From Rhodanobacteraceae bacterium (GTDB taxonomy: Bacteria > Pseudomonadota > Gammaproteobacteria > Xanthomonadales > Rhodanobacteraceae), in contig DAIOUL010000001.1 of NCBI GenBank assembly GCA_036759545.1, positions 5,983 through 69,982 of the forward strand: a stretch of DNA of 64,000 nt, read 5' to 3'. The notes beneath the pieces are model-generated. The model did not search any database. It saw nothing but the letters and a program-made list of their open reading frames with translations, and was not told where the DNA came from. Positions 4,630-36,474 of this stretch are shown here, one piece after another (within the stretch, counting starts at the first letter, position 1; each line of letters begins with the position of its first letter). The translations under genes and the position numbers were made by a program.

Positions 4630-4631
4630 GT

Positions 4632-7563: not shown

Positions 7564-7640
7564 GAGGCGGCGACTCCGGTGGCGAAGGTGTATCGTAACC
7601 TCGAGCTTTCTATTGGACTCGACGCAGCAGCGAAGCGCGA

Positions 7641-8336: not shown

Positions 8337-8343
8337 ATCACTG

Positions 8344-10173
<1,830 letters not shown>

Positions 10174-10638
10174 GCTGGATGCGCCTTGGGGCTCGACGGG
10201 GACCCGTCATGATACGTGCCAGCTCTGACCGCGAGAATACCGCCGCGTTCCATGCGCCGGCGTAGGGCGGCACCTACATGGATTTCGGTCGCTGGCCGTT
10301 TCAAAATGTTTGCGGAAGAGAGACAATGGACGTCCTGCGGCGAAGAACGTGAGCCAGAGGGGCACTGGAGGTAGGGAATGCCAAGTGTGGTCCGCATCGC
10401 CAACGCAGCCAAAAACACCATCTTCAAATAATTGAGCCGCGCCGGCGCGCACGCGCCAGCCGATATCCTGAGCGCCCGCAAACGTCATTTGGCGGATGGC
10501 GCCGCGGATGCTCCGGCATGGATCCTGCTTCGGATCTTGCCGTGCGGGATTTCAATTGCCGATTCCGCGCGAGGCACGGCCCTTCATCGAATCGAAACAC
10601 ATCTGCGCCGTAATGGCGTGGAGACGGACGGGAGTCGC
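10174..10638. promoter_or_regulatory. long divergent intergenic region between glmS and the EPS priming transferase
   Basis: This is about 465 nt without a convincing CDS and is locally less GC-rich (e.g. ...accatcttcaaataattgagcc...). It must carry the promoters for glmS (minus) and the sugar transferase (plus). No promoter motif was confidently identified. Confidence 0.3.
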
Positions 10639-12042
10639 GTGGTGTTCAGGCTGTTGAGACAACGAGCCTTGCGCTGGCAGTTGCTGCTTGCCGGTTGCGA
10701 ATTCCTGTTGCTGTTTGCCTGCGTTTTCTTCGCGGTGCACCTGCGCTTCTGGAACGATCCTGGATATCAGGTCGCTTTTGGCCACGCTCTGCGTCTGCGT
10801 GCCTTGCTGGTTGCGCTGATGATCGTGCTCGGCATGGCTGCGCTCGGGCTTTATCAGAATCAATTGCGCGCCAATTGGCGTGGGCTGCTGGTCCGCCAGG
10901 CGCTGGGTTTCGCGATGGGCGGCGTTTCGCTGCTGATCCTCTACTACGGCATTCCGGCAACCTACATCGGCCGCGGTGTGTTGGGACTTGCGCTGGTTAC
11001 CGGCTTCGTGGCGGTAACGGCATTCCGCATGTTGTTCCTGCAGGTAGTGGATGCCGAGCTGTTCAAGCGCCGCGTGGTGGTGCTGGGCGCGGGCCATCGC
11101 GCTGCGCTGATTTCGCAGCGCATGCGCCGGCGCTCGGATTCGCGCGGGTTCCGCGTGATCGGTTATGTGCCGATGGGCGACGAGCCCATCGCGGTGCCGC
11201 AGAACATGGTGTTGCGCCCGGATCGGCCATTCCGCGAATGGACCCGGCTGATGCAGGTCGACGAGCTGGTGGTCGGGCCGGATGATCGCCGCGGCGGTTT
11301 GCCGATGGCTGAACTGCTGGAATGCAAACAGAGCGGCGTGATCGTCACGGAGCTGGCCGCGTTCTTCGAACGGGAATCCGGGCAGATCAAGATGAGTCTG
11401 GTCAATCCGTCCTGGCTGGTGTTCTCCGATGGATTCGACACCTCACCCGTGCGCCGGCTGACCAAGCGCGCCTTCGACATCGCCGCCGCGCTGCTGGTGC
11501 TGGCAGTGACATGGCCTCTCATGCTGCTGGTGGCGCTGGCGATCCGGATCGAATCGGGCCGGGGCGCGCCGATCTTCTACCGGCAAGACCGGGTCGGCGA
11601 ACACGGCCAGGTATTTCCGCTGATCAAATTCCGCAGCATGCGCACAGATGCCGAACGCGACGGCGTGGCCCGCTGGGCGAGCAAGGATGATGACCGCGTC
11701 ACCCGCGTCGGCCGCTTCATCCGCAAGGGTCGTCTGGACGAGCTTCCGCAATTGTGGAACGTGCTGCACGGAGACATGAGCTTCATCGGGCCTCGTCCCG
11801 AACGGCCGCAGTTCGTGGACGATTTCAATGCCAAGATCCGCTATTACCCGCTGCGCCACTGCGTGAAACCGGGACTCACCGGCTGGGCGCAGTTGCGGTA
11901 CCCATACGGATCATCGGCGGAGGACGCAGAGGAAAAGCTGAAGTTCGACCTGTTCTACGTCAAGAACCACAATCTGCTGTTCGATCTGATGATCCTGATC
12001 CAGACGGTCGAGGTGGTGCTGTTCCGGCGCGGCGCGCGCTGA
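10639..12042 (+). CDS. exopolysaccharide polyprenyl glycosylphosphotransferase (bacterial sugar transferase; EpsB/WbaP-like priming enzyme)
   Basis: The C-terminal domain reads FDIAAALLVLAVTWPLMLLVALAIRIESGRGAPIFYRQDRVGEHGQVFPLIKFRSMRTDAE ... LDELPQLWNVLHGDMSFIGPRPERP ... KPGLTGWAQL. Several N-terminal TM helices are present. The track ORF starts at 10432, but family members begin just before the first TM, so I chose GTG at 10639 (GGGAG lies 5 nt upstream). The start is uncertain. Confidence 0.8.
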   Translation: MVFRLLRQRALRWQLLLAGCEFLLLFACVFFAVHLRFWNDPGYQVAFGHALRLRALLVALMIVLGMAALGLYQNQLRANWRGLLVRQALGFAMGGVSLLILYYGIPATYIGRGVLGLALVTGFVAVTAFRMLFLQVVDAELFKRRVVVLGAGHRAALISQRMRRRSDSRGFRVIGYVPMGDEPIAVPQNMVLRPDRPFREWTRLMQVDELVVGPDDRRGGLPMAELLECKQSGVIVTELAAFFERESGQIKMSLVNPSWLVFSDGFDTSPVRRLTKRAFDIAAALLVLAVTWPLMLLVALAIRIESGRGAPIFYRQDRVGEHGQVFPLIKFRSMRTDAERDGVARWASKDDDRVTRVGRFIRKGRLDELPQLWNVLHGDMSFIGPRPERPQFVDDFNAKIRYYPLRHCVKPGLTGWAQLRYPYGSSAEDAEEKLKFDLFYVKNHNLLFDLMILIQTVEVVLFRRGAR

Positions 12043-12058: not shown

Positions 12059-12487
12059 TCATTGCGCGATCGTTCCCCACCCCCAAAGCGCCCACGCCAG
12101 CGCCAGCAGTATCAGCAGCGCCAGCAGCACGCGTTTGCGCAGCGACTTCGGCTCCGGAGCAGTGGACACCGGCTCGCGGCGCAGATTGGACAGGCTCACT
12201 GCGGAATGCCCGCTGGGCGGAGTGGCAACGCTGTTGCGGCGAGCTCCGGCAGGATCCGCGCCCGGAAGCCGCCCGAAACGACGCTCGAACGCGATGGCGG
12301 CGCCGTAGAGGGTATTGAGATGCTGGATGGACTCGGACGTGCTACCGGCAGCCGAGGCGCAGTTGCGATCAGGATGCAGCAATGCGACGCGTCGGCGATA
12401 GGCCTGCTTCAACTGGTCCAGGCTGCAGCGTTCCGGCGACAGTCCGAGCTCCTGATAAAGAGCGAGAAAATCGATGTCGTTGGACAT
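12059..12487 (-). CDS. J-domain (DnaJ-like) protein with C-terminal membrane anchor
   Basis: ATG at 12487. The J-domain reads DFLALYQELGLSPERCSLDQLKQAYRRRVALLHPDRN and includes the HPD tripeptide. The C-terminus has one hydrophobic helix, RKRVLLALLILLALAWALWGWG. Confidence 0.75.
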   Translation of the reverse strand: MSNDIDFLALYQELGLSPERCSLDQLKQAYRRRVALLHPDRNCASAAGSTSESIQHLNTLYGAAIAFERRFGRLPGADPAGARRNSVATPPSGHSAVSLSNLRREPVSTAPEPKSLRKRVLLALLILLALAWALWGWGTIAQ

Positions 12488-12580
12488 GAGCCAGTTCCCC
12501 CTCCGGGTGACATATTAACCCCTGCCAGGCATCCGCGCTGATGGCGTCGGAACGCCCCGTCCTGCAGACAAATTCCTTCA

Positions 12581-13402
12581 CTAGCGCCCTGACATCGCCG
12601 CCCGGCTGAAGACAAAGCCGCGGTACTTTTCCACAGTGCAATCGGGATGGAAAGGGATATCGCAGCGGCGGTCCGGTTGATCCCAGTGATCGCGCGTTTC
12701 ATAACCCCGCCGCTTCAGTTCGTCCATGAATTCGCCCATGGCCTGGATGCGGTAGGCGCAATAGTGCGTTCCCATGTTCTGTACCGTGAAGAAAGACTTC
12801 TGGGGGTGCAGCGGCAATACGTTGACGAGGATATGTCGCGGAGGTACAGCCAAACGATCGAGCAATTCAATCAAAGTGTAGTCGAGATATTGCAGCGAGC
12901 CGGACGCGAACAGCACATCCTGTGCATTTGCATCTTCGCGTTTTTCGGTGAAGCCGATTTGGTGCTCTGCATCGTGATCGCGAGCCCACGCGGCCCCGGC
13001 GGCGACAATCATCGGCAGTTCGCAGACGGTCCAGCGCAGTTCGGAGGGGTAATCCAGGTAGCGCCGGAAAGCGTAGTACTTGATGCCGATATGGCCGCCC
13101 AGATCAAACACCGATCGTGCGCCCTCCCGGAACAATCGTTCCAGCCAGAAAAGCGCGGGGTAGTCGCAGGCCAGGATGTAGCGGGTCCTGGCGGCATACA
13201 GCGCCGCGCCTTCGGCATTGTCGTAACCCACCGGCCGCGTGGTTGGCGCGTGCGCCAGGGCGGCAGCGAAAGTGGGGAACACCCCATAGTACGCGTTGAA
13301 ATCATTCCCGTGATGCGCAAACCGGCGCCGATACGACCGCTCCAGGATGCCTCTCAGTCCGGGCAGCATGCGGGCTTGATGATAAATGGCCTTGAGCGAC
13401 AT
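12581..13402 (-). CDS. putative SAM-dependent methyltransferase (TIGR04325/LIC12133-like family seen in O-antigen loci)
   Basis: The ORF 12581..13540 was trimmed to the internal ATG at 13402 (MSLKAIYHQARMLPG...). Supporting motifs are YYGVFPTFAAALAH, VFDLGGHIGIKYY (motif-I-like) and LFASGSLQYLDY. The family call comes from motif memory only. Confidence 0.55.
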   Translation of the reverse strand: MSLKAIYHQARMLPGLRGILERSYRRRFAHHGNDFNAYYGVFPTFAAALAHAPTTRPVGYDNAEGAALYAARTRYILACDYPALFWLERLFREGARSVFDLGGHIGIKYYAFRRYLDYPSELRWTVCELPMIVAAGAAWARDHDAEHQIGFTEKREDANAQDVLFASGSLQYLDYTLIELLDRLAVPPRHILVNVLPLHPQKSFFTVQNMGTHYCAYRIQAMGEFMDELKRRGYETRDHWDQPDRRCDIPFHPDCTVEKYRGFVFSRAAMSGR

Positions 13403-13538
13403 TCCGGCCCCTCGAATACCAGAATCAGGCGGCTCGCCAGAAGTCCGGGATTCTCCCACCTTTGAACGGCTTGTTGGCCGGCGGAACGGGTGAGAAGATG
13501 GAGGTCCGCTTGGGTACGGATGATGCTTCAGGTTCGCC
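13403..13538. promoter_or_regulatory. divergent promoter region (methyltransferase <-> cupin/NRPS operon)
   Basis: A 136-nt gap lies between divergently oriented starts at 13402 (-) and 13539 (+). This is inferred from gene arrangement only. Confidence 0.3.
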
Positions 13539-14465
13539 ATGGGGGAGATAGCCGCTCGCTGGATCGATGTCGACTGGTCGTCGTTCGATCCTTGGCGCGT
13601 GCAGGGGCCCTTGCGGCACCGGCTGATGGAACACCCGCTGCTGCAATGGGATCAATTGCTGGAGCTGGGCAAACGCCTGGATCCGCTCGGGCAATTCCGC
13701 ACGCACAGCAATCAGGCTCAGGCAGGGACGCCTTTCAACGATGCGCCGCGGATGTTTCGCAACCGCAAGTCTGCGGTGGAGACCATCGAAAGCCTCTCCG
13801 ATGCGAATGCCTGGATGTCGCTCCTGAACGTGCAAACCGACCCGCTATACCGGACTTTGGTCGACGAGGTTCTGGATCAGATCAAGCCCGGGATGGATCG
13901 GGTCGATCCGGGCATGTGCTACCGCGCCGGCTGGATCTTCATGGCTTCGCCGCACACCATCACGCCTTTCCATTTCGATACCGAGCACAGCTTCATCGTG
14001 CAACTCGAAGGACACAAGACCCTGTATGTGTGGGATCCACAGGATCTGGAAGCCGCCAGCGAGCACGCGCGCGACCGTTTCCACGCCTATCACGACCGCA
14101 AGCTGCTGATCTGGCGGGAGGAGCTGCGCCAGCGCGCGCATGTGTTCCGGCTCGAACCCGGTGTCGGCGCCTACATGCCCTGCACCAGTCCGCACCTGGT
14201 GGAAAACGACGACGAACGTTCGTTGACCATGAGTTTTACCTTCTATACCGATTCCACGCGCCGCAGCCGCGCCTTGCACAAGCTGCACGCAGCGCTGCGC
14301 AATCTCGGCATCACGCCCCCCGCTGTGGGGGAGAATCGGCTGCTCGATGCGGTCGGACACGCCCTTTACCGGTGCAAAGACGCCTCGGAATTGACGCTGC
14401 GCCGGCTCACCGGGCGCAAGACGCATCCCGAAAACGCTCCCCACGCTTTCGCCGATGCGATCTGA
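13539..14465 (+). CDS. JmjC/cupin_8-like Fe(II)/2OG oxygenase (aspartyl/asparaginyl beta-hydroxylase-like)
   Basis: ATG at 13539. The double-stranded beta-helix core reads WIFMASPHTITPFHFDTEHSFIVQLEGHKTLYVW (H-x-D), with a distal His in AYMPCTSPHLVEN. It is the first gene in the same orientation as the NRPS/PKS genes. Confidence 0.6.
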   Translation: MGEIAARWIDVDWSSFDPWRVQGPLRHRLMEHPLLQWDQLLELGKRLDPLGQFRTHSNQAQAGTPFNDAPRMFRNRKSAVETIESLSDANAWMSLLNVQTDPLYRTLVDEVLDQIKPGMDRVDPGMCYRAGWIFMASPHTITPFHFDTEHSFIVQLEGHKTLYVWDPQDLEAASEHARDRFHAYHDRKLLIWREELRQRAHVFRLEPGVGAYMPCTSPHLVENDDERSLTMSFTFYTDSTRRSRALHKLHAALRNLGITPPAVGENRLLDAVGHALYRCKDASELTLRRLTGRKTHPENAPHAFADAI

Positions 14466-14558: not shown

Positions 14559-17500
14559 ATGAGGACCGAAGAATCGCCCCGGCGCGGCAACGCGGGTGTT
14601 CCCGCGCTGCCCGTGTCAGATCCCACGCTCCACGCTTGTGTGGAGCGGCAGGCGCGGCGCGCGCCGGATGCCGTGGCGGTCAAATGCGGCGCGGAATCGT
14701 TCACCTACCGCGAGCTCAACGCCCGTGCCAACCGGCTGGCCCATAAATTGCGCTCGCTCGGCGCAGGTCCGGATTCGCTCGTGGGGATCGGGTTGGAGCG
14801 GTCGCCCGGTATGGTGGTCGGGCTGCTGGCGATCCTGAAATCGGGCGCAGCGTACCTGCCTCTGGACCTCGCCTATCCGCGCGAACGTCTGGAGTTCATG
14901 CTGGCCGACGCGGGCGTCGACATCGTCCTGACTTCACGATCCGGTGCCGAAGCGCTCGGCACCCGCACGGGAACGACGTTGTTGCTGGACGACGAGCAGA
15001 CCACGGCGGGACAACCGGATTCGGATCCGGCGCCGGTTTCGGCCGCAAGCAATCTGGCTTACGTGATCTACACCTCGGGCTCGACAGGCAAGCCGAAGGG
15101 TTGTCTCGTCACCCACGCGAACGTGGTGAGGCTGTTCGCGCAGACGCAGCCCTGGTTCGGCTTCGGACCCAAAGACATCTGGACTTTTTTTCACTCGCAC
15201 GCTTTCGATTTTTCCGTCTGGGAAATCTGGGGTGCGCTGGTGCACGGCGGGCGGGTGGTGGTAGTGCCGCACGAAGTCACCCGCTCGCCCGACGTCTTCC
15301 ACGCATTACTGGCGAGCGAGGGCGTGACAGTCCTCAATCAGACGCCTTCCGCATTCCGCGCATTGATTCAGGCCGATCTTGCTTCGAGCCTGCCGCCGTC
15401 CGAGTTCTCGTTGCGCTACGTGATTTTTGGAGGGGAGGCGCTTGATCTGCAGATGCTGGCGCCCTGGTTCGAAAAACACGGTGACGAGCGGCCGCGCTTG
15501 ATCAACATGTACGGCATCACCGAAACCACCGTGCACGTCACCTATCGACCACTGTCCCGGGTCGATCTGGATCGCAACGCCGGCAGCGTCATCGGGGTGC
15601 CGATTCCGGACCTCGCCGTGTACCTGCTCGATTCCAATTTGCGTCCAGTGCCGGAGGGCGAGATCGGCGAAATGTTCGTGGCCGGTGGCGGGGTGTCGCG
15701 TGGCTATCTCAACCGGCCGGAACTGACAGCGGAACGCTTCATCGACTGGAGCGCTCCCGATGGAGTCATCCGCAAGTTGTATCGGACAGGCGATCTCGCG
15801 CGGCGGCTGCCCGATGGCGATCTGCAATATCTCGGACGTTGCGATCAGCAGATCAAGATACGGGGATTCCGTATCGAAACAGGCGAAATCGAAAGCGCGT
15901 TGCAACGCCATCCCGGTGTGCAAGCCTGCGCCGTGATTGCGCGCGACGACGGACCTGAAGGCGCGCACCGGCTGGTGGCTTATGTGGTGCCGTCGGCGGA
16001 CACGATCTCACCGCCGCAGTTGCGCGAACATCTGGCGGCGAGTCTGCCCGATTACATGCTGCCTTCCGCCTACGTTTTTCTCGATTCACTGCCGCTTACC
16101 GAGAACGGAAAGCTGGACCGCAAGGCTTTGCCCGCTCCCGGACGCGAGCGGCCGGACCTGGCGGTGCCCTTCGACCCGCCGATAGGAGCCGACGAACTTC
16201 GCGTCTGCGGAGTATTCGCGGAGCTGCTGTCGCTGGATCGGGTCGGCCGCAACGACAACTTCTTCGAGCTGGGCGGCAATTCTCTGCTTGCGGCGCGTGC
16301 GGTCACTGCCTTGAACGGAACCGCTGCGAACCTCGCGGTCACTGACATCTTCCGCGCGCCGACTGCGGCCGGCTTGGCGGCGATCATCGCCCGCAGCGCG
16401 GGACACACTGTCGAGCCCTCCCGGCTGGGTGTGGCGAAGCAAGCCGGCGAAGGTGATCCTATCGCGATCATCGCGATGGCCGGCCGCTTTCCCGGCGCAA
16501 AGGATGTCGAGAGCTTCTGGAGGAACCTGTGCGACGGCGTAGAATCCATCACACGCTTCGCACCGGAGCAACTCGATCCTTCCATTCCCGCAGCGCTGCG
16601 CAACGATCCGGCGTACGTGGCCGCACGCGGCGTGATCGAAGGCGTGGAAAACTTCGATGCGGCATTCTTCGGTATCAGCCCGCGCGAAGCGGAATTGATG
16701 GATCCGCAGCAGAGGATCTTCCTCGAATTGTGCTGGGAATGCCTGGAGCGCGGCGGTCACGTCCCCGATGCGCAAAAGGCTCCGGTCGGCATTTTCGCCG
16801 GCATGTACAACGGTACGTACTTCCGCAACCACGTGCAGGCGCATCCGGAGCTGATCGCCAAGCTGGGCGAGTTCCAGGTGATGCTCGGCAACGAGAAGGA
16901 TTACATCGCCACGCGCACCGCGCACAAGCTCAATCTCACCGGGCCGGCGGTCAGCGTGCACACCGCGTGTTCGACCTCGCTCGTGGCGGTTTGCCAAGCC
17001 GTGGAAGCATTGCGCCGCGGCCAATGCCGGATGGCCCTGGCCGGCGGCGCGGCGGTGACGTGTCCGCCGGCGAGCGGTTATCTCCATCAGGAAGGTGCAA
17101 TGTTGTCGCGCGACGGCAGTACGCGCACTTTCGCCGCCGATGCCACCGGCACGGTTTTCAGCGACGGCGCGGCGGTAGTGTTGCTGAAACGCCTCGTCGA
17201 CGCGGAAGCGGATGGTGATCCCATTTATGCAGTGATCCGCGGTTGTGCCGTCAACAATGACGGCGCGGACAAGGCGAGCTTTACCGCACCGAGCGCGCCG
17301 GGCCAGGCCGCGGTGATCGCGATGGCGCTCGATGATGCGGGCGTCGACGCGCGATCGATTTCCTATGTGGAAGCGCACGGCACCGCGACACCGGTCGGCG
17401 ATCCGATCGAGATCGAAGGGCTCACCGCGGCGTTTCGGCGCGATACGCAAGATAGCGGGTATTGCGCGATCGGTTCGGTGAAGAGCAATGTCGGTCATCT

Positions 17501-20500
17501 GGTTACCGCCGCCGGCGCTGCGGGCCTGATCAAGACCGCCTTGGCTCTCTGCGAACGCAAACTGCCGCCAACGCTGCACGCGAAGCCCCTCAGTGCCGCG
17601 ATCGATTTCGCGAATTCCCCGTTCGTCGTCAACGACCGCCTGCGCGAGTGGCGCAGCGAATCCGCGCCGTTGCGCGCGGGCGTCAGCTCGTTCGGCGTCG
17701 GCGGCACCAACGCGCATGTGATCCTGGAAGAAGCACCGGTACGGGAACCTTCGACGCCCGCAGAGGGGCCGCAACTGCTGTTGCTGTCGGCACGCACTTC
17801 AGGCGCATTGAAGGAAGCACGCAAGCGGCTGGCGGCGGAACTCGCGGATCAACCCGGATGCAACTTGGCCGATGTGGCCTGGACCTTGTCCGTGGGCCGC
17901 AAGGCGTTCGCGGAACGCACATTCCTGGTTGCCGCAGAGTGTTCCGAAGCGGCAGCGAAATTGCGGCAAGCTGCTTTGCAGGCGTACACCGCGCAAACAC
18001 GCGAAGTAGTGTGGATGTTTCCGGGCCAGGGCGCCCAGTACGCCGGAATGGGCCGAGCGCTCCATGCCAGTGAACCCGAGTTCCGCGAGGCGCTGGATGC
18101 CTGCGCGGAAATCCTTGCAGGCGAACTCGGCTTCGATCTGCGCGAGCGTCTTTTCTCGGAAGATCCGGACGCACTCGGCGAAACGCGCATCACGCAGCCT
18201 GCCACCTTCGCGATCGAATACGCTCTTGCGCAATTGTGGCTCGCACGCGGCATCCGCCCGGCCGCGCTGATCGGGCACAGCGTCGGTGAGTTCGTCGCGG
18301 CCGTGATCGCGGGCGTGATGGGCCTGGATGACGCTTTGCGACTGGTGGCGCGGCGTGGACAGTTGATGCAGGCCCAGCCGGCGGGCGCGATGCTGTCGGT
18401 GAGGTTGAGCGCCGACAAGCTGGCCGCTCGATTGCCGCCGTCGCTGTCGCTGGCGGCGGAAAACGCGCCGGAGGCCTGCGTGGCGTCCGGTGAAATCGCC
18501 GACATCGAAACGCTGCGGATCGCGTTGGAAGCCGATGGCGTGGCGTGCCGCGCGTTGCGCACCTCTCACGCGTTCCATTCCGCGATGATGGATGCCGTGG
18601 TGGAACCCTTCCGCGCGGAGATGGAACGCGTACCGCTCGCTCCTCCCCGCATACCGATTGCTTCCACCTTGCTGGGCGAATGGCTCGACGAGCGGACGGC
18701 GACTTCGCCTGACTACTGGGCCCGCCATCTGCGAGGGACCGTACGTTTCGCGCGCGCGCTGTCCGTTGCCGCGGAGTTTTCGCCGGATTCCGTCCTGCTC
18801 GAACTGGGGCCGCGCACCACGTTGACGACGCTCGCGCGCATGAATCCGCACGCGCGTTCGCACCTTGCGATCGCGTCGCTCGAAAGCGATGCGCGCGATG
18901 AACGGAGCGTATGGCTTTCCGCAGCCGGACGATTGTGGTGCGCCGGCGCGCCGCTGGATGCCTCGAGCTTCGATCATCGCGAGCGCAAGCGTCGCCTGTG
19001 TTTGCCCACTTATCCGTTCGAGCGCGTGCGTCACTGGGTCGACCCGAGCGTGACGACGCCGGCAGTACAGGTCGCACAGAAATCCGCGGCCTTTGCGGCA
19101 AGCGCTCCGGCGGCTGTTCAGGAGCCGTCGATGACAACAAGTGCTTCCGCCGCGCCGCGCCGCGAGCGCCTCATTGCGCAGATTCTCGCAATGGTCGAAG
19201 ATGTTTCCGGGGAGGATCCGCAGTCGATCGATATCGGCACCAGTTTCGTCGCGCTCGGACTCGATTCGCTGGCGCTGACGCAACTCTCGATGCAGCTATC
19301 CAGGACCTTCGGCGTCAGGATCACTTTCCGTCAGCTGATGGAGGACTTGTCCTCCCCGGAGAAACTGGCCATGAGCATCGACCGCGAACTGCCTCCGGAA
19401 GCGAATCCCGCCGGTTTCGCCGAACAGCCGATGGCGGCTCCGCCGGCCGCGGCGCAAAACGGACTGCTGCAGCAGGTGATCGCGCAGCAGATGATGATCA
19501 TGCAGCAACAACTTGCGATGCTCGGCGGCGCCGGACCGGGCACCTCTGTTTTGCCGACCCATGCGCCGCCGGTCGGTACGAGCGTGCCTGCGGCTGCCGC
19601 ACCTCCGCCGGCGCAGGAAGAGGAAGCCGCGCTGTCGCACACGCGCTATGACGTGAAGAAAGCCTTCGGCGCCATCGCGCGCATACATTCGGGACAGACC
19701 GAACTGACGGAACGTCAGCGTGTGCGTCTCGCCGCTTTCATCGACCGCTACGTTGCGAAAACCCGCAAGTCGAAGGAATACACGGAGCGGCATCGCACCG
19801 TGCTCGCCGATCCGCGCGTCGTCAACGGCTTCCGCCCGCTGCTCAAGGAAGTCGTTTACCAAATCGTGGCCGAACGCTCCAAAGGTTCACGGTTGTGGGA
19901 TCTGGACGGCAACGAATACATCGACGCACTCAACGGCTTCGGCATGAACCTGTTCGGCTGGCAACCCGATTTCGTGCTCGATGCGGTCCGTCGACAGATC
20001 GAACTCGGCTACGAAATCGGCCCGCAGCATCCGCTCGCGGGTGAAGTGGCCGAGCTGGTCTGCGAGATGACGGGGTTCGACCGCGCTGCATTCTGCAATA
20101 CGGGCTCGGAAGCGGTGATGGGCACCGTTCGCGTGGCGCGCACGGTTACTGGGCGCGAAACGCTGGTGATCTTCAGCGGCTCGTATCACGGCATCTTCGA
20201 CGAAGTGATCATGCGCGGCACCAAATCGCTGCGCTCGGTACCGGCGGCGCCCGGCATCCTGCGCAACGCCGCGCAGAACGTGCTCGTGCTCGAATACGGC
20301 ACGGCGGAGTCGCTGGAAATCATTCGGCAGCGCGCGGGCGAAATCGCGGCCGTGCTGGTGGAGCCGGTACAAAGCCGGCGTCCCGACTTCCAGCCGCGCG
20401 AGTTTCTTGCGGAATTGCGCACGATCACCCGCGACGCCGGCGCGGTACTCATTTTCGACGAAGTCGTCACCGGCTTCCGCACGCATCCGCGCGGGGCACA

Positions 20501-21185
20501 ACACGCGCTCGGTATCGATGCGGACCTCGCCTCCTACGGCAAGGTCATCGGTGGAGGTTTCCCCGTCGGCGTGATCGCCGGCAAGCGCGAATACATGGAC
20601 GCCCTCGACGGCGGCCAATGGCAATTCGGCGACGATTCGATTCCCACCGTCGGCGTCACTTATTTCGCCGGCACCTTCGTTCGGCATCCGCTCGCACTGG
20701 CAGCGGCCAAGGCTTCTCTGCAACATCTGAAGACCGAAGGACCGGCGCTGCAGGAGCGGCTCAACGCACGCACCGCGGAGATGGTCGCCGGCCTGAACCG
20801 TTTCTGCGCCGAAGCGGGCGCGCCGATCACGGTGACGCATTTCGCATCGCTGTGGCGCATCGGATTCAACGAGGATCATCCGCTGCAGGATCTGCTGTTC
20901 GCGATGATGCGCAGCCGCGGCATCCACATCCTCGAGCACTTTCCCTGCTTTTTCACCACCGCGCACAGCGATGCCGACATCGCTGCCATCGCGAAGGCGT
21001 TCCGCGAATCCGTTGCCGAATTGCAGGAAGCGGAATTCCTGCCGCGCCGGCGTACGCCTTCGGCGTTCGACGCAAGCAAGCCGCCCGTTGCCGGTGCGCG
21101 GCTGGGCAAGGATCCCGAGGGCCGCCCGGCCTGGTATGTGCCCGACCCGGTGCAGCCTGGCAAGTACGTGAAGGTGGAGGCATGA
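14559..21185 (+). CDS. hybrid NRPS-PKS: A(Thr)-T-KS-AT(malonyl)-ACP-aminotransferase (class III PLP)
   Basis: Length is 2208 aa. A domain: LAYVIYTSGSTGKPKG, NMYGITE, YRTGDLAR, GRCDQQIKIRGFRIETGEIE and ENGKLDRKAL. T: FFELGGNSLLA with Ser575 at nt 16281-16283. KS: DPIAIIAMAGRFPGA, HTACSTSLVA with Cys804 at 16968-16970, EAHGTATPVGD and GSVKSNVGH. AT: FPGQGAQ, GHSVGE with Ser1241 at 18279-18281, and HAFHS. ACP: LGLDSLAL with Ser1570 at 19266-19268. C-terminal aminotransferase: SGSYHG, IFDEVVTGFR and ASYGKVIGGGFP with Lys1995 at 20541-20543. No KR, DH or ER was seen. Confidence 0.95.
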   Translation: MRTEESPRRGNAGVPALPVSDPTLHACVERQARRAPDAVAVKCGAESFTYRELNARANRLAHKLRSLGAGPDSLVGIGLERSPGMVVGLLAILKSGAAYLPLDLAYPRERLEFMLADAGVDIVLTSRSGAEALGTRTGTTLLLDDEQTTAGQPDSDPAPVSAASNLAYVIYTSGSTGKPKGCLVTHANVVRLFAQTQPWFGFGPKDIWTFFHSHAFDFSVWEIWGALVHGGRVVVVPHEVTRSPDVFHALLASEGVTVLNQTPSAFRALIQADLASSLPPSEFSLRYVIFGGEALDLQMLAPWFEKHGDERPRLINMYGITETTVHVTYRPLSRVDLDRNAGSVIGVPIPDLAVYLLDSNLRPVPEGEIGEMFVAGGGVSRGYLNRPELTAERFIDWSAPDGVIRKLYRTGDLARRLPDGDLQYLGRCDQQIKIRGFRIETGEIESALQRHPGVQACAVIARDDGPEGAHRLVAYVVPSADTISPPQLREHLAASLPDYMLPSAYVFLDSLPLTENGKLDRKALPAPGRERPDLAVPFDPPIGADELRVCGVFAELLSLDRVGRNDNFFELGGNSLLAARAVTALNGTAANLAVTDIFRAPTAAGLAAIIARSAGHTVEPSRLGVAKQAGEGDPIAIIAMAGRFPGAKDVESFWRNLCDGVESITRFAPEQLDPSIPAALRNDPAYVAARGVIEGVENFDAAFFGISPREAELMDPQQRIFLELCWECLERGGHVPDAQKAPVGIFAGMYNGTYFRNHVQAHPELIAKLGEFQVMLGNEKDYIATRTAHKLNLTGPAVSVHTACSTSLVAVCQAVEALRRGQCRMALAGGAAVTCPPASGYLHQEGAMLSRDGSTRTFAADATGTVFSDGAAVVLLKRLVDAEADGDPIYAVIRGCAVNNDGADKASFTAPSAPGQAAVIAMALDDAGVDARSISYVEAHGTATPVGDPIEIEGLTAAFRRDTQDSGYCAIGSVKSNVGHLVTAAGAAGLIKTALALCERKLPPTLHAKPLSAAIDFANSPFVVNDRLREWRSESAPLRAGVSSFGVGGTNAHVILEEAPVREPSTPAEGPQLLLLSARTSGALKEARKRLAAELADQPGCNLADVAWTLSVGRKAFAERTFLVAAECSEAAAKLRQAALQAYTAQTREVVWMFPGQGAQYAGMGRALHASEPEFREALDACAEILAGELGFDLRERLFSEDPDALGETRITQPATFAIEYALAQLWLARGIRPAALIGHSVGEFVAAVIAGVMGLDDALRLVARRGQLMQAQPAGAMLSVRLSADKLAARLPPSLSLAAENAPEACVASGEIADIETLRIALEADGVACRALRTSHAFHSAMMDAVVEPFRAEMERVPLAPPRIPIASTLLGEWLDERTATSPDYWARHLRGTVRFARALSVAAEFSPDSVLLELGPRTTLTTLARMNPHARSHLAIASLESDARDERSVWLSAAGRLWCAGAPLDASSFDHRERKRRLCLPTYPFERVRHWVDPSVTTPAVQVAQKSAAFAASAPAAVQEPSMTTSASAAPRRERLIAQILAMVEDVSGEDPQSIDIGTSFVALGLDSLALTQLSMQLSRTFGVRITFRQLMEDLSSPEKLAMSIDRELPPEANPAGFAEQPMAAPPAAAQNGLLQQVIAQQMMIMQQQLAMLGGAGPGTSVLPTHAPPVGTSVPAAAAPPPAQEEEAALSHTRYDVKKAFGAIARIHSGQTELTERQRVRLAAFIDRYVAKTRKSKEYTERHRTVLADPRVVNGFRPLLKEVVYQIVAERSKGSRLWDLDGNEYIDALNGFGMNLFGWQPDFVLDAVRRQIELGYEIGPQHPLAGEVAELVCEMTGFDRAAFCNTGSEAVMGTVRVARTVTGRETLVIFSGSYHGIFDEVIMRGTKSLRSVPAAPGILRNAAQNVLVLEYGTAESLEIIRQRAGEIAAVLVEPVQSRRPDFQPREFLAELRTITRDAGAVLIFDEVVTGFRTHPRGAQHALGIDADLASYGKVIGGGFPVGVIAGKREYMDALDGGQWQFGDDSIPTVGVTYFAGTFVRHPLALAAAKASLQHLKTEGPALQERLNARTAEMVAGLNRFCAEAGAPITVTHFASLWRIGFNEDHPLQDLLFAMMRSRGIHILEHFPCFFTTAHSDADIAAIAKAFRESVAELQEAEFLPRRRTPSAFDASKPPVAGARLGKDPEGRPAWYVPDPVQPGKYVKVEA

Positions 21186-24100
21186 CGTCCGCCGAGGTCA
21201 GTAGCACGACCGCTGCTCACGATCCATTCGCGGAAACGACGTTGGCGCGCGTCGTGCCCGCGATCGAGGCACAACGCGAAGTATGGCTGGCGGCCAAACT
21301 GGAGCCCGCCGCTTCGCTGGCCTACAACGAAGGCATTTCGCTGCACTTGCGCGGCAATCTCGACACGGCGGCGTTGCATGGCGCCCTGCAGGAGCTGCTC
21401 GCACGCCACGACGCATTGCGCGCGACGCTGAGTCCGGATGGCGCCGAGCTGTGCATCGCCGAGAGTGCCGAGGCGGCATGGGCGGAGCAGGACTTGTCGA
21501 CGCTCGACCACGACGCGCGCGATGCTGCGGTCGCGGCGACGTTGCGCCGCGCTGTGGAAACGCCGTTCGATCTCGAACACGGGCCGTTGCTGCGCGCCGA
21601 GCTGCTGCGGCTCGGCACGGACGATCATCTGCTGGTTCTGAGCGCGCACCATATCGTCTGTGACGGATGGTCCTGGGGCGTGCTAATGAGCGACCTCGCC
21701 GCCTGCTATGCCGCGCTGCTGCACCACCAGGCGCCGGCACTCGACGCAGCGGATTCCTTCGCCGACTACGCGCTCGAGGAGATTCATTACGCGGAATCGG
21801 ATGAATTCCGCGCCGCCGAACGCTATTGGCTGGGACGTTTCGACAAACTCCCCCCGGCTTTGGACCTGCCGACCGACCGGCCGCGACCACGAGTACGCAG
21901 CTTCGCTTCGCAGCGGCGCGATTGCACGCTCGATCCGGGCTTGGTCAAGGTCGCAACGCAAACCGCCGCACAACAGGGTGCGAGCCTGTATGCGTTACTC
22001 CTCGCCACTTTCGCGCTATTGCTGCACCGGCTTTCAGAACAGGACGATCTCGTCATCGGGATTCCCGCCGCGGGCCAAGCAGCGACGGGACGTCCCAATT
22101 TGGTCGGCCACTCGGTCAACATCCTTCCTTTGCGCTGCGCGATCGATGGCGGCGCGCCGTTTGCGCAAACACTTTCGCGGATCCGCGGCGATCTGCTGGA
22201 TGCGGTCGAACACCAGCGCTACACGTTCGGTACCTTGCTGAAGCGGCTGGCGATGCCGCGCGATCCGGCGCGGCTGCCGCTGGTGAACGTGCTTTTCAAT
22301 CTGGACCGCGCGCTCGGTCCGGAACAGGCGGCTTTCGAGGGCCTGGAATTCGAGCTGGCCACGCTGCCGCGCAGCTTCGAGAATTTCGAGTTGTTCGTCA
22401 ACGCGGTCCAGCTCGGCGACGGTGCCCTGAGCCTCGAGTGCCAGTTCAATAGCGATCTGTTCGACGCGGAGACGATCGACGCATGGCTGGATGCATACGC
22501 CACGCTGTTGCGTGCCGCTTGCACAGACCCGGCCCGCAGTGGCGACGCGCTGGAAATGCTTTCCCCCGGCGCGCGCGCGAAGCTCGACGGATTCCAGCCG
22601 CCAGCGGCCACGTTCCATGAAGCGCGGCTGGCGCACGAGTATTTCGAACGTGCCGTGGACCGTGCAGCGACGCGCCAAGCGCTGCGCTGCGCCGACATCC
22701 GTTGGACCTACGCCGAACTGGAGTCCCGCGCCAACCGCATTGCGCACGCTTTGCGCGCACGTGGGGTCGGCCGTGGCGCACTGGTCGGGCTGGCTCTCGC
22801 ACGCGGCCCGGACATGATCGCGAGCGTACTCGCGGTGCTCAAGGCCGGCGCGGGCTACGTTCCGCTCGACCCCTCGTTTCCGGTTCAACGTCTCGCGTTC
22901 ATGGCGAGCGATGCATCGCTCGCGGCATTGGTCGTGGACGACGCGCCGCCGGAATGGTTCGAACATTCGAGCGCTGTCTTGTCGCTCGCCGCCAATGCTG
23001 CGGAAATCGATGCGCAGCCCGAAACGCGGCTGCCTCGCGATGAGCGGTCGGCGGCTCCCGATTCGATCGCGTACGTGATCTACACATCCGGTTCGACCGG
23101 CCAACCCAAGGGCGTGCAGGTGCCGCACCGGACCACGTCTAACTTGTTGACGTCGATGCAGCGCGTGCCGGGCATCGACAAGGATGACAGGCTGGTCGCG
23201 GTAACGACGCTGTCTTTCGACATCGCGTTCGTGGAGCTGATGTTGCCGCTCTGCGCCGGGGCGGAAGTGGTGATTGCGGATCACGACCAGGTCCGTGACG
23301 GAGCGGCGTTGCGCGCGCTGATCGAGAACAGCGCGGCGACGGTGTTGCAGGCGACGCCTTCCGGCTGGCGCATCCTGCTCGACTCCGGCTGGACCGGCCA
23401 TCCGCGATTCAAGGCCATCACCGGCGGCGAACCTTTGACCCTCGATCTTGCGGAAGCGTTGCTGTCGCGCTGCGGCGAGGTCTGGAACGGCTACGGACCG
23501 ACCGAAACCACGGTGTACTCGACTTACTGGCGCGTCGCCGCGCCGCGCCGCGGCATCTTCATCGGCCAGCCGATCGCGAACACCGACGTTCGCATTCTGG
23601 ATGAGCGGGGAATGCAGTGTCCGGTGGGCGCCCCAGGCGAAATCACGATCGGGGGAGCCGGCGTTTCGCTGGGGTATCTCGGACGTCCGGAACTGACTGC
23701 CGAGCGGTTCATCGCGGACAGCTTTTTCCGCGAAGCGGGAACGTTGCGGTATCGCACCGGCGACCGTGGACGCTGGAGGTGGGACGGCAATATCGAACAC
23801 CTCGGCCGGCTCGATTTCCAGGTCAAGGTGCGCGGCTACCGGATCGAGCTGGGCGAAATCGAATCCGCACTCGTCGCGCTTCCCGAGGTGGCGCGCGCGG
23901 TGGTCGTTGCGCGCGAGGAGCGGCTCGGCGATACCCGGCTTGTCGCCTATGTTGTGCTGCGGGCGGGTGCCGCACTGGACAGCGCGGCGGCGCGGACGCG
24001 CCTCAAACAGATTCTGCCGGAATACATGATTCCGCAGCATGTGGTGTTGCTGGACGCGATCCCGCAGTTGCCGAACGGCAAGATCGATCGCAAGGCGTTG

Positions 24101-27100
24101 CCCGCACCCACGGTGCAAGCCTCTCCGTCGTCGGCGCATGTCGCACCCCGCAATGAGCACGAGCGGCGCGTCGCAACGGCCATGGAGGAGATTCTCGCGT
24201 TACCCGGCTTGGGTATCCACGATGATTTCTTCGCACTGGGTGGACACTCGCTGCTGGCTGCACAGCTCACCGCGCGGCTCAATCGCGAGTTCGGCCTCAC
24301 GCTATCGCTCCGCACCCTGTTCGACTCGCCGACCATCGCGGGGCTGTCTGCGGTCATCGAGGAGCGGTTGAAAGAAGGCCAGGGCGATGCGAGCGAGCCG
24401 ATCGAGCATCGCGCCGACCAGTCGCGCGCGCCCTTGTCGCTGGTGCAGCAGCGCATGTGGCTGCTGGAGGAGATGAATCCGGGCCGCGTCAACTACAACA
24501 CGCCATCGGCTCACCGGCTGCGGGGTCGGTTGGACGAGGCCGCCTTCGAGCGCGCTTTCCGCGAAATGGTGCGGCGACAGTCCGCCTTGCGCACCGCGAT
24601 CGTCCGGGAAAATGGCGAGCCGATGCAGGTGGTGGAACCTGAGATCGAAATCAAATTGTTTCCGGCGGAGGATTTGTCCGGCTTGCCGGCCGGAGAACGC
24701 GAAGCCGTGTTGATGGATCGTCTTCAACGATTGACGGATACACCCTTCGATCTTTCACGCGCGCCGCTGTTTCGCGTGCGCATGTTCCGCATGGCGGCGG
24801 ATGAGCATGTCCTGTTCTTCATGCCGCACCACATCATCTGGGACGGATGGTCCTTCGATCTGGTCTATGGCGAGCTCTCGGAGCTCTATCGCGCTTACAA
24901 GACCGGTTCGCAGCCGAAGCTTCCGGCGCTGCCGGTGAGCTACGGAGATTTTGCCGTCTGGCATACGCGCTGGCTGGAAGGACCGCAACTCCAGTCGCAG
25001 CTCGCTTTCTGGCGGGACAAGCTGGCCACCGTGGAAGAGCCGCAGAATCTTCCTGCCGACAAGCCGCGCAAGCCGGGCATGTCGGGAGAAGGCCGCACCG
25101 AATGGATCAAGGTTTCGGGTGAGCAAACCGATGCCATGCGCCGGATCGCGCGCGAGGCCGATGCGACATTGAACATGGCCTTGCTGGCTCTGTACTACGT
25201 GCTGCTGTTCGAAACCATGGGGCAGCACAATCTCGTGATCGGCACTCCGGTGCGCGGGCGCAGCCAGGTGGAAATCGAATCGGTGATGGGATGTTTCAAC
25301 AATCTCGTGCCGCTGTATCTGCGGCTGGAACCGAATCTCCCTTTCACGGAGCTGGTGCGGCGGGTCAAGCGCATCGTGGTCGAGAGTTTCGAGCACCCGG
25401 ATGTACCACTCGAACACCTGCAGAGCGAACTCAAGGCCAGGCACGGCGGAAACGCGTTGCTGTATCAGGCGCTGTTCTCGTTTCAGGACGCGCGCCAGCG
25501 CATCACGGATTGGGCCGGGCTCTCGCATGAACAGATCCTGCTGTTCCAGAGCGGAGCCAACGAGGACCTCGGCCTGTGGTTCTTGGAAAACAACTCCGGG
25601 ATGATCGGCGGAGTGACTTTCAACGCGGATGTTTTCCGTCCGGATACCGCGCGCATGCTGCGCGAGCGTTATCTCGAACTGTTGAGTCGGGTGATCGACG
25701 ATCCGGACCAAGCCGTTTCATCGCTGACCCGGATCAGCGATGCAGATCTTGCCAAAGTGCGGCAATGGAACATGCCCAAGGACATTCCAGGCGCAGCTGT
25801 CCGCATCGAAAAGGCGTTCGAGGCGCGCGCCGAACGCGCTCCCGCCGCGATTGCGGTGGCGGCGGCAAACAAGGATTTCACTTGTGCTGAAATCGAGCGC
25901 CTGGCGAACCAGATCGCCGCCTGTCTGCACCGGCGCGGCGTCGGCAGGAACAGCGTGGTCGCGCTGGCCGAGGAGCAGGGAGCCGATCGCACAGCCAGCC
26001 TGCTGGGAATCTGGAAGGCCGGCGGCATCTGTCTGCCGCTCGAGCCGGCCGATCCGCCTTCGCGCCTGAAGTCGATCATCGTCGATGCGAACGTGGCGGT
26101 AGTCATCGGCAGGTCGAAGCTGGAGCCTGCACTCGACTGGCCGCGTTCGCGTGCGCTCTGGCTCGATGCCGATCAGACGGAGATCGTCTCGGCTTCCGAA
26201 TCGACCGGTGTGCCTGAAGCAGGTGCCGATGACGTCGCCCTCCTGATCTATCCCGGCGACACGGCAGAAACGGGAAGCGCGCGCATATTTTCGCACCGCG
26301 AGATCGGCCGAAACGCTTGGGCACTGCGCGGCCTGCTCGGGCTCGGCGACGAAGCGCGGGTGCTGGGGACCTCCGCGCCTTCCACCGCCATGTCGATGCT
26401 CGAGTGCGTGTTGCCGATGATCGGTGGAGCGATCGTGGCGGCGCGTCCGGATGAAATTTCAAATGGCACGACGCTGATCCAGAGGATCAGGACCGGAAAA
26501 CCGGACATCGTGTTCGCGGCGACGGATATCTGGAAAAAAATGCTGGCAGTCGACGTGGCCGGCATGCCCCGACTGAAAGCTGTCTGCTTCGGGGGAACCC
26601 CCAAGCCGCAACTTGTCGAAAAGATACTCGCCCGTCACGGCGAACTCTGGAACGCGCTATCGCTGGACGACGGCATCGTTGCCAGCTGCGGGCGTGTCGA
26701 GTCGACCGACGCTGCGATCCACGCGGGAGGGCCACTTGCGGGCAACGTCATTTCGATAGTCGGCGACGATGGACGACCGCAACCGATCGGCGCGATCGGG
26801 GAAATCTGCGTGGCGGGCGATTGTGCGGGACAGGAGGCGGGCTCGCTGGAAGCCGTGGCTGCCCAAGCCGCGCGGCGCACCGGGTTCCGCGGCCGCTGGC
26901 TTGCCGGCGGCGAAATCGAAGAGCTGGGTCGGCTGGATCGGCGAATCTGCGCGAGCGGCCGCGTGGTTGATCCCGCAGCCATAGAGCAGGTGTTGCGCAA
27001 GCAGGCGGGCGTGGAAGACGCCCTTGTCATCTCCAATGTGGATGCGGACGGAGCCGTCAAGCTGATCGCTTACGCAGTCAGGAAACGGGGTGCATCACCG

Positions 27101-28399: not shown

Positions 28400-28505
28400 A
28401 GGCGGCGGCGCGCGTCTCGGGCTCGGTCGATCAGCGCAGTACAAGAGCACGCACAAACGATCACGCGCGTGCGGACGGATGCATCGGTCGAGCTGGCGCC
28501 ACGAC

Positions 28506-29510
28506 ATGCCCGATTTGCGACTCAGTGTGATCATCCCGACATGGAATCGCGGGGCGATGACCCTGCGCGCGTTGCGTTCGGTGCTGGCACAGCCTGACGC
28601 GAATCGCCTTGAAATCATCGTGATCATCGATGGTTCGACGGACGACACCGAAATGCTGCTGCGCGCGAACCACGGCGAGGATCCGCGTGTGGACATCCTT
28701 GTTGTCCCGCACGGCGGCGTAAGCGCCGCGCGCAATGCGGGTTTCGCGAGGTCGCGCGGCGAGCTGATCTGCTTTCTCGATTCCGACGACTACTGGTTGC
28801 CCGGCGCTTTCGCCATCGCCGAAAGCGTGTTTGCGCGGCATCCTGGACTGGCTTTCGTCAGCCTCGACGGGAGCACCTTGCCCCGTCCCGGAGCGCCGGC
28901 GCTGTCGCGCGTCATGCGTGCCAATGGGCCCGGCTGGTCACATGCGGCTTTCGCGAACGCGCCGCTCGCCTTCGAAGATATCAGAGCCGGAACCGACAAC
29001 CGCGCAACGCGCGTGCTGCTGGGGGATTTTTTCCCGGCGATCATTCACGGTGATCTGTTCCAGGTCGACGGGCTGTTCATGCGCCGCGAGGCGATAACGC
29101 GCGCCGGGCTCTTCGACTCCCGTTTCGACTATCTCGAGGATTGGGAATTCTTTGCGCGGCTATGTCTGCAGGGACACGGCGCTTACGTGGATTGCGCCGG
29201 CTTCTGCCGCGATGTGGGCCGTGACGACGAACTCACGCATCACCGCGCGGATACCTCGGTGCCGCTTCGGCACCTGCAGATCCTGCATTCGCTGCCGCGG
29301 CGATTTCCGCACCGCATGGCAGCATATGCGGACTGTTTGCGCGGCGCGATGGTGGATGCGCGCTACCAGATGGGTGCGGCGCTTTCGCGCAGCCGGCACC
29401 GGCGCTGGTCCCGGCCATATCTATGTCGCTGCCTGAAGCAACGTTACAAACCCGCGAGATCCCTGGTTCATCTCGCGAGATCGCTGCTTCCACGCGGCCG
29501 AGTTCGGTGA
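28506..29510 (+). CDS. glycosyltransferase family 2
   Basis: The ORF was trimmed to the ATG at 28506. The sequence reads LSVIIPTWNRGAMTLRALRSVLAQ ... IIVIIDGSTDDT ... AARNAGFARSRGELICFLDSDDYW (GT-A fold with DxD). It lies 106 nt downstream of the NRPS TE. Confidence 0.85.
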   Translation: MPDLRLSVIIPTWNRGAMTLRALRSVLAQPDANRLEIIVIIDGSTDDTEMLLRANHGEDPRVDILVVPHGGVSAARNAGFARSRGELICFLDSDDYWLPGAFAIAESVFARHPGLAFVSLDGSTLPRPGAPALSRVMRANGPGWSHAAFANAPLAFEDIRAGTDNRATRVLLGDFFPAIIHGDLFQVDGLFMRREAITRAGLFDSRFDYLEDWEFFARLCLQGHGAYVDCAGFCRDVGRDDELTHHRADTSVPLRHLQILHSLPRRFPHRMAAYADCLRGAMVDARYQMGAALSRSRHRRWSRPYLCRCLKQRYKPARSLVHLARSLLPRGRVR

Positions 29511-30440: not shown

Positions 30441-30518
30441 CGAGAACCTCCGGGCATGTGCCCGAAGCATCGCGGATAATTAGATCACGCATTTCGCTCC
30501 GGCGGCAGAGCCGGAGCG

Positions 30519-36464: not shown

Positions 36465-36474
36465 GGGGCAGGTC

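Follow-up and report, generated by a model that had tools for sequence, protein, structure and literature searches.

Within a 64,000-nucleotide stretch of a Rhodanobacteraceae genome (GenBank assembly GCA_036759545.1, contig DAIOUL010000001.1; this whole stretch is hereafter called the window), a single gene at 14559..21185 encodes a hybrid of a nonribosomal peptide synthetase (NRPS) and a polyketide synthase (PKS). The domains of this synthetase follow one another in the order adenylation (A), thiolation (T), ketosynthase (KS), acyltransferase (AT), acyl carrier protein (ACP) and aminotransferase (AMT). We propose that the A domain loads threonine, that the PKS portion extends it with a malonyl unit, and that the AMT turns the resulting ketone into an amine. 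We assign this chemical logic a probability of roughly 0.7.

The synthetase lies on the plus strand as one uninterrupted open reading frame (ORF) with an ATG start and 2208 residues, and both its domain order and its catalytic motifs can be read from it directly. Pfam places AMP-binding at residues 29-384 (E 3e-91) and AMP-binding_C at 443-518, giving a loading A domain at residues 29-518 (14643..16112). The first of two PP-binding stretches follows and marks the T domain T1 (approximate limits 16200..16394), with Ser575 in a GGNSL motif at residue 572. The KS (residues 633-1008; 16455..17582) is matched by PF00109 and PF02801, at residues 633-882 (E 3e-70) and 890-1008 (E 5e-42), and a motif search of the protein found its Cys-His-His residues intact (Cys804, His940 and His980, with the motifs TACSTS, EAHGTAT and NVGHL). 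After the KS-AT linker families comes the AT (residues 1151-1424; 18009..18830; PF00698, Acyl_transf_1, E 4e-56), in which GHSVG at 1239 and HAFHS at 1337 supply the GHSxG serine and the HAFH, not YASH, of a malonyl-CoA-specific cis-AT. The second PP-binding stretch, at residues 1541-1604 (19179..19370), is the best match for the ACP and has its DSL serine motif at 1569 (LGLDSL). The protein closes with the AMT (residues 1713-2163; 19695..21047), where Aminotran_3 matches residues 1767-2125 (E 2e-46) and the catalytic lysine is Lys1995. Given these E-values, chance is not an issue for the domain assignments. The nearest named homologue, from a Rhodanobacteraceae metagenome-assembled genome, is 85% identical, and since close homologues are 2185-2219 residues long, we take the gene to be intact.

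No ketoreductase (KR), dehydratase (DH) or enoylreductase (ER) was found in its 2208 residues (Pfam, E <= 0.01), nor was there an adh_short match. The stretches between the AT and the ACP (~117 residues) and between the ACP and the AMT (~110 residues, rich in Ala, Pro and Gln) are, moreover, too short to hide any of these three domains. A first-pass annotation, made by a model from the sequence and its ORFs, had described exactly this arrangement, with A-T-KS-AT-ACP-AMT at 14559-21185 and without KR, DH or ER in cis, and the ORF and Pfam matches bear it out. The motifs that it quoted are each found at one site: FDFSVWEIW (216), VLNQTPS (258), VIFGGE (288), INMYGITETTVHV (315), ENGKLD (515), HAFHS (1337) and SYGKVIGGG (1992, which contains Lys1995).

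The first claim in our proposal concerns the primer. When we read the specificity code from motif anchors at positions 235, 236, 239, 278, 299, 301, 322, 330, 331 and 517, we obtained DFWNIGMVHK, the same string that the first-pass annotation had reported. In the scheme of Stachelhaus, this is the code for threonine. The best relatives of the loading A domain among PDB sequences are LgrA (707 bits), ObiF1, McyA, TycA and similar NRPS A domains. With this canonical code in an NRPS-type A domain, the proposed role as a threonine activator passes at the level of sequence. Of the 120 nearest homologue protein clusters, 109 retain the pattern DFWN[IV]GMVHK; Thr types are over-represented in this list because it is ranked by similarity to the query. 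We also considered a fatty-acyl-AMP ligase (FAAL) as the loader, as in the mycosubtilin synthase MycA, and this could be ruled out, as Asp235 and Lys517 are both present and the top PDB matches are NRPS A domains.

The second claim concerns the fate of the ketone. We compared the C-terminal domain, as a query of 501 residues, with all PDB sequences, and the top match was the AMT of mycosubtilin synthase A (6KFM, 6KFR and 6KFU; E 6.5e-128, 431 bits), spanning query residues 6-456, whereas the best match to a glutamate-1-semialdehyde (GSA) aminomutase reached 183 bits (1.1e-52). The lysine that binds pyridoxal phosphate (PLP) aligns with that of MycA (SYGKVIGGG versus TYGKIIGGG), and the DE(V/I)xTGFR stretch is conserved. 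This likeness to MycA is a direct observation and, given the difference between 431 and 183 bits and the aligned lysine, the interpretation of the domain as a transaminase survives. The MycA AMT is the enzyme of this type that has been characterised biochemically, and it moves the amine from Gln to an ACP-bound beta-keto thioester (summarised in PMC3870968). The class-III PLP aminotransferase with its lysine that had been foreseen at the C-terminus is thus present (Aminotran_3, Lys1995 aligned), and neither of the two outcomes that would have counted against it, namely grouping with non-transaminating GSA-mutase-like enzymes or a lack of PLP binding, is indicated. An identity as a GSA aminomutase (HemL) was rejected on further grounds: the scores for TIGR00713 (243 bits) and PRK00062 (265) stay below their respective cut-offs of 527 and 398, and the domain is embedded in a megasynthase and lies far closer to the MycA AMT. 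The AMT also stands where it does in MycA-type beta-transaminating modules, immediately behind the ACP in a PKS module that lacks a KR, and with a condensation (C) domain next. The synthetase departs from that type at the primer end: MycA-type modules start from a fatty or polyketide acyl chain, whereas the loader here is an A domain of NRPS type that carries a Thr code.

From these features we infer the substrates, the transamination and the product. In a short hybrid assembly line, the synthetase would supply both the loading module and the one for the first extension. As its code suggests, the A domain would adenylate L-threonine and transfer it to T1, and the AT, judging from GHSVG and HAFHS, would put a malonyl group derived from malonyl-CoA on the ACP. 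The KS would then take the threonine from T1 and, by decarboxylative Claisen condensation, yield 4-amino-5-hydroxy-3-oxohexanoyl-S-ACP, whose 3-oxo group the AMT would convert into an amine to give 3,4-diamino-5-hydroxyhexanoyl-S-ACP. With no C domain in the loading module, the alpha-amine of threonine should stay free, and since the substrate that passes from KS to AMT would already carry this amine, the predicted product is a vicinal diamine, the 3,4-diamino-5-hydroxyhexanoyl unit.

We next consider how widely this design occurs. Relatives were sought by a scan of one genome per species, which returned more than 589 related stretches, a total to be read as an upper bound because the search patterns include generic PKS motifs; the best 80 loci were used, and their genes were clustered all against all with antisense ORFs inside megasynthase genes filtered out. 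The complete A...KS-AT-ACP-AMT arrangement is present in 61 of these 80 species-level loci, where the core continues as C-A-T, and the module after the AMT is usually of Gly type across the family. The family extends over Pseudomonadota (Lysobacterales, Variovorax and Bradyrhizobium), Bacteroidota, Acidobacteriota and Myxococcota, and there are cyanobacterial homologues. Nearly half of the complete loci (30 of 61, mostly Lysobacterales and Variovorax) have a Val-type primer code, DA[LF]WLGGTFK, and another 13, all from Bacteroidota, have a Pro-type code, DVQF[IM]A[HQ]VVK; the remainder are Thr (6), Ser (3), Asn (1) and other codes (8). On these codes, threonine priming is a minority flavour of a widespread orphan family of alpha-amino-acid-primed, beta-transaminating synthetases. 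Among the Val, Pro, Thr and Ser versions, the KS and AMT domains are 70-80% identical and the A domains only ~42%, and the window's synthetase compares with that of a Dyella species (L040) in the same manner (KS 76%, AT 68%, AMT 79%, A domain 42%). This disparity, which also separates the window's synthetase from Val-primed relatives at Lysobacterales loci (KS, AT and AMT 68-79%, A domain ~42%), suggests a swap of the loader on a PKS-AMT chassis that was kept.

The gene that follows, at 21182..28399 on the plus strand, encodes an NRPS whose order, from Pfam, a motif map and the junction sequence, is C1-A2-T2-C2-A3*-T3-TE, where A3* is a degenerate A domain and TE a thioesterase. Its start overlaps the stop of the synthetase gene (GC-ATG-A, 21182-21185), a junction that indicates that the downstream NRPS is translationally coupled to the hybrid gene. 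Such coupling to a gene that begins with a C domain fits a hand-over of a beta-aminoacyl thioester. Both C domains have recognizable motifs (HHIVCDG in C1, HHIIWDG in C2). A2 has complete core motifs and the code DIVQIGGVYK, which was read directly in one alignment and hand-corrected from DIVQTGGVYK in another, gapped one, and its predicted substrate is a small, Gly-like residue. The diamino thioester would thus be condensed with such a residue on T2, a second residue might be added on T3, which would be loaded without help from its own decayed A domain, and the TE could release the product by hydrolysis or as a lactam with one of the two free amines.

The decay of A3* (25802..27244, plus strand) is extensive. 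It has no P-loop TSGSTGxPK and has STAM for FDxS, hence no Asp235, and NALSLDDG replaces NxYGPTE, RRTGFRG replaces YRTGD and GRLDRRICASG replaces GRxDxQVKIRG. The corresponding position varies among relatives: in a 73%-identical relative (L081) the line ends in C-T-TE, in a Variovorax locus (L083) it reads C-A-T-C-T, and in two Luteibacter loci there is a degenerate remnant. Because relatives thus have C-T-TE or C-T without any A domain, a last module without an A domain of its own is a trait of the family. Where A3 is intact (e.g., L002, L018, L038 and L065), its code is the same Gly-type one that A2 has. Most simply, A2 would also serve T3, unless T3 is loaded in trans, and X-Gly-like-(Gly-like) would be the product of the line.

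In addition to the two assembly-line genes, the window holds a set of candidate tailoring genes. Directly upstream of the synthetase is a gene for a JmjC/cupin-8-like oxygenase (13539..14465, plus strand), whose Pfam matches to JmjC_2 and Cupin_8 (E ~5e-6 to 7e-6) are near the gathering scores without clearly exceeding them, and divergent from it is a gene for a TIGR04325-family methyltransferase (12581..13540, minus strand; NCBIfam 222 bits, cut-off 80). Downstream of the NRPS, Pfam identifies a GT2 glycosyltransferase (28479..29510, plus strand) and two Sulfotransfer_3 sulfotransferases (29514..30470, minus strand; 36454..37491, plus strand, E 1e-27), and the genes beyond the NRPS also include those for a thiamine pyrophosphate (TPP) enzyme, an A-T-TE protein, an ATP-grasp-like protein, an FkbM methyltransferase, an epimerase and a GT4 glycosyltransferase. 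In L081, the closest relative with gene context, two sulfotransferases, a GT2 and an epimerase likewise follow immediately after the NRPS. The oxygenase, the TIGR04325 methyltransferase, the GT2 and the two sulfotransferases probably tailor the product, and the first two could modify the diamino unit.

By its gene content, the region from 10 to 61 kb of the window is a ~50-kb XrtA/PEP-CTERM-type exopolysaccharide (EPS) locus in which the synthetase genes are embedded, and the synthetase set is probably tied functionally to this polyprenyl-phosphate-dependent locus around it. Three XrtA-type markers score above their NCBIfam cut-offs: a priming sugar transferase of family TIGR03013, the XrtA/PEP-CTERM system glycosyltransferase (10432..12042, plus strand; 558 bits, cut-off 393), a chain-length determinant protein (TIGR03007; 371, cut-off 279) and an export protein (TIGR03027; 205, cut-off 180). 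The latter two lie at 49394-60638 on the minus strand, where models for an stp1/stp2 glycosyltransferase and an XrtA-associated tyrosine kinase are matched below cut-off, and the 49-61 kb region also holds a GT2, a deacetylase and an O-antigen-ligase-like protein, with the exosortase-A O-ligase model matched below cut-off. No NCBIfam exosortase model matched among the scanned window ORFs, and no [VIL]PEP C-terminal tails of PEP-CTERM substrates were found in the window; such genes may lie beyond it.

Several other genes in the window deserve brief description. Between the two sulfotransferase genes, 30519-36464 contains, over both strands, the TPP enzyme, which is acetolactate-synthase-like and falls below all NCBIfam cut-offs, the A-T-TE protein and the ATP-grasp-like ORF; the A domain of the stand-alone A-T-TE protein has no Asp235 and perhaps uses a substrate that is not an amino acid. 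A small DnaJ-like ORF (12257-12511, minus strand) between the priming transferase and methyltransferase genes is 50% identical to a DnaJ-domain protein whose gene recurs next to the synthetase, in 13 loci from Lysobacterales as well as in L081. Two ORFs at 40756-42423 and 42617-44569 (plus strand) encode apparently secreted paralogues that share an N-terminal YY(I/V)RTDGGT..QCTGL and match no family other than, weakly, 'choice-of-anchor Q', and homologues of this pair are found near the synthetase in loci L054 and L074. The left flank (1855-10173) consists of ordinary carbohydrate metabolism genes (GH31, a GH36/melibiase-like hydrolase, a GDSL lipase and a GlmS-type amidotransferase), and a CocE/NonD-family hydrolase is encoded at the right end (61885-63663).

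A number of points weigh against the interpretation as we have set it out. The Stachelhaus code is blind to the difference between L-Thr and allo-Thr, and it leaves room for an enzyme such as the JmjC-like one to modify the threonine while it sits on T1. Through its free 4-amino group, the beta-keto thioester could also close to a tetramic acid ahead of transamination. Further along the line, the A2 code is only Gly-like, with ~5 of its 10 residues shared with the Gly code DILQLGLIWK. The link to a polysaccharide is one of synteny. Across the 80 wider loci there is essentially no conservation of the genes for the sulfotransferases, the TPP enzyme, the A-T-TE and ATP-grasp-like proteins and FkbM: the unambiguous ones each occur in 0-1 loci, and the many A-T-TE matches are the synthetase genes themselves. 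Sharing is limited to the closest relative, L081 (two sulfotransferases and a GT2). Lastly, we found no biochemical or metabolite data for any family member in the open-access literature.

There are also alternative readings. The likeliest of them concerns biological role and is compatible with the chemistry proposed above: the diamino-acyl peptide would be built onto, or glycosylated by, a glycan pathway linked to undecaprenyl phosphate, and would serve as a decoration of an EPS or oligosaccharide or as its aglycone. We hold this only tentatively, and would sooner bet against it than for it. In its favor, the synthetase is embedded in an EPS locus (10 to 61 kb) with TIGR03013, TIGR03007 and TIGR03027 all above cut-off, and a Bac_transf-type priming transferase lies <=10 kb from the synthetase in 29 of 84 related loci (L001-L084) from several phyla, including those of Variovorax, Niabella, Mucilaginibacter, Fibrella, two Acidobacteria and Chamaesiphon. 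In Chamaesiphon polymorphus (L084:3212-23449), the order is Bac_transf ... [GT2-A-T-KS-AT-ACP-AMT] [C-A-T-TE] Wzy_C, Wzx, GT4, GT4, epimerase, and in Lysobacter fragariae (L082:6837-24996) Bac_transf stands upstream and a Wzx-type flippase downstream. Similar fusions of a GT2 ahead of a Thr-coded A domain occur in ~20 cyanobacterial homologues; this GT2 is 30-40% identical to the free-standing GT2 of the window, a value that is weak evidence by itself because the N-terminal regions of GT2 proteins are generally alike.

Two alpha/beta hydrolases that recur in 23 and 18 loci, downstream of assembly lines that have no TE (e.g., L015:23227-24156, L018:8547-9404 and L083:22462-24211), point in the same direction, as their only or best NCBIfam matches, below cut-off, are to hydrolase 1 and hydrolase 2, exosortase A system-associated. 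A phosphopantetheinyl transferase (PPTase) recurs in 30 related loci. By tblastn, neither the PPTase nor either hydrolase is clearly present in the window (one PPTase match of 41 residues, E 0.001, at ~54.4-54.5 kb was taken as noise), and the window's own assembly line has a cis TE where these genes of its relatives are not clearly present.

Taken together, there is moderate evidence that the product may be glycosylated or joined to a glycan. However, it is synteny that makes the case for a peptide-glycan conjugate, many loci (e.g., that of Variovorax, L083) show no glycan genes <=10 kb from the synthetase, the window has yielded neither PEP-CTERM tails nor an exosortase, and we know of no precedent for a Wzx/Wzy glycan that carries an NRPS-PKS product. 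More doubtful still is a generalization of the same idea, namely that this is a cross-phylum system in which a beta,gamma-diamino-acyl peptide is covalently attached to a glycan built on undecaprenyl phosphate, as a decoration or as an EPS aglycone. In XrtA-type loci, such a system would replace the set formed by the acyl-CoA ligase, ACP, PLP decarboxylase and hydrolases 1 and 2. If it were true, the conjugate would belong to a new class of NRPS-PKS/polysaccharide conjugates and may bear on what exosortase-type loci attach to polymers.

It is unlikely, although it has some support, that threonine is loaded and extended as proposed and yet the unit handed on is a different one, either through a change made on the carrier (JmjC-like hydroxylation, TIGR04325 methylation, or O-glycosylation or O-sulfation of the threonine or chain) or through the uptake of allo-Thr or another beta-hydroxy amino acid. 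The genes for the JmjC-like enzyme and the methyltransferase adjoin the synthetase and are conserved beside it across distant taxa, with a JmjC-like homologue in 17-18 of the 80 loci, from several phyla, and the methyltransferase in 15 of 80, Kofleriaceae, Bradyrhizobium and Candidatus Cybelea among them. The cyanobacterial homologues in which a GT2 domain is fused to the loading module speak for the same alternative. Domains of the DFWNIGMVHK type are also used to feed modified threonine residues, as in the case of SyrB1 and 4-chloro-Thr, and this too favors a modified unit. Nevertheless, Val-primed synthetases have the JmjC and methyltransferase genes beside them just as Thr-primed ones do, so that these genes are not tied to the threonine hydroxyl, and the timing of tailoring enzymes is not readable from sequence.

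We consider it highly improbable that the AMT is idle or bypassed, so that the 4-amino-3-oxo thioester leaves as a tetramic acid, is passed on as a keto unit like that of the andrimid-type gamma-amino-beta-keto amides, or is reduced by a KR in trans to a statine-type residue: free gamma-amino-beta-keto thioesters are chemically prone to lactamisation, and the existence of AMT-less variants, A-T-KS-AT-ACP-C... (L063, P0071-P0077), indicates that related lines can process the keto form, but the window's AMT matches MycA at 431 bits with most of the alignment length identical and with both the PLP lysine and DE(V/I)xTGFR conserved, its standing as the best-conserved domain among relatives (68-80% identical) argues for purifying selection on an active enzyme, and there is no short-chain dehydrogenase/reductase or KR gene among the scanned window ORFs, whose Rossmann enzymes are sugar epimerases or dehydratases only.

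Threonine priming followed by transamination on the carrier remains the reading that we prefer. Its enzymology is predictable from known domains, and beta,gamma-diamino acids made on an assembly line are uncharacterised as a product class. The first-pass annotation did not know the amino-acid-primed KS-AMT logic from any characterised pathway, and we found none in the open-access literature either; solanimycin, coralinone and flavipulchrin were compared as candidate precedents, and the logic is not the same. Nor did that literature give a characterised example of vicinal diamines made via a PKS, or of NRPS-PKS genes in PEP-CTERM/EPS loci. Given that no characterised pathway with this logic was found and yet at least 61 species-level genomes carry the design, its products appear to be a blind spot. 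If the predicted chemistry is right, the synthetase would represent a natural, modular way of making vicinal (beta,gamma) diamino acids on an assembly line out of ordinary alpha-amino acids, and the module could serve as an engineering template for the biosynthesis of chiral 1,2-diamines. In addition, the recurrence of such synthetases beside priming sugar transferases, Wzx/Wzy and fused or adjacent glycosyltransferases suggests that NRPS-PKS products may be tied to surface polysaccharides.

Among known systems, the mycosubtilin and iturin synthetases MycA and ItuA resemble the window's line in that a class-III PLP aminotransferase is embedded directly behind a PKS extension, an NRPS C domain comes next, and there is no KR. 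In MycA, the primer is a fatty acid activated by a FAAL domain. The window's synthetase differs in having a canonical NRPS A domain with a Thr code in place of that loader and in possessing its own cis-AT, and its AMT ends the polypeptide, with the C domain placed on the next, translationally coupled protein. The modules of McyE and NdaF (microcystin and nodularin) and those of puwainaphycin, microginin and flavipulchrin type have the same KS-AT-ACP-AMT order with a C domain after it, and convert a beta-keto to a beta-amino group on the carrier (PMC4219810, PMC2885083, PMC12819058). They take a polyketide or fatty-acyl chain, and none of them starts from an alpha-amino acid via an A domain in the same module.

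Similar in architecture to the window's synthetase is one of Pseudanabaena galeata CCNP1313, an orphan described from sequence alone, with the order C-A(Val)-PCP-KS-AT-ACP-AMT (PMC11356792). It shares the amino-acid-primed KS-AT-ACP-AMT core, followed by C-A-PCP modules and a TE, and it is likewise an orphan, but its module is preceded by a C domain, and Val is the predicted primer. With respect to the outcome of the chemistry only, the alpha-amino ketone that becomes a vicinal diamine through a class-III PLP aminotransferase has a parallel in biotin synthesis, where BioF and BioA lead from 8-amino-7-oxononanoate to 7,8-diaminononanoate. These are free-standing enzymes with free-acid substrates, however, and the amino ketone there comes from an alpha-oxoamine synthase rather than from a KS. 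Statine-type modules, A-T-KS-AT-KR-ACP, make residues such as the isostatine of didemnin, dolaproine and dolaisoleuine, and they share with our proposed pathway the joining of an aminoacyl thioester and one malonyl unit to a gamma-amino-beta-oxo acyl thioester. In those modules a KR reduces the ketone to a beta-hydroxyl, whereas the synthetase described here has no KR and carries an AMT after its ACP, and with an AMT in place of the KR its predicted product is a beta-amino rather than a beta-hydroxy acid.

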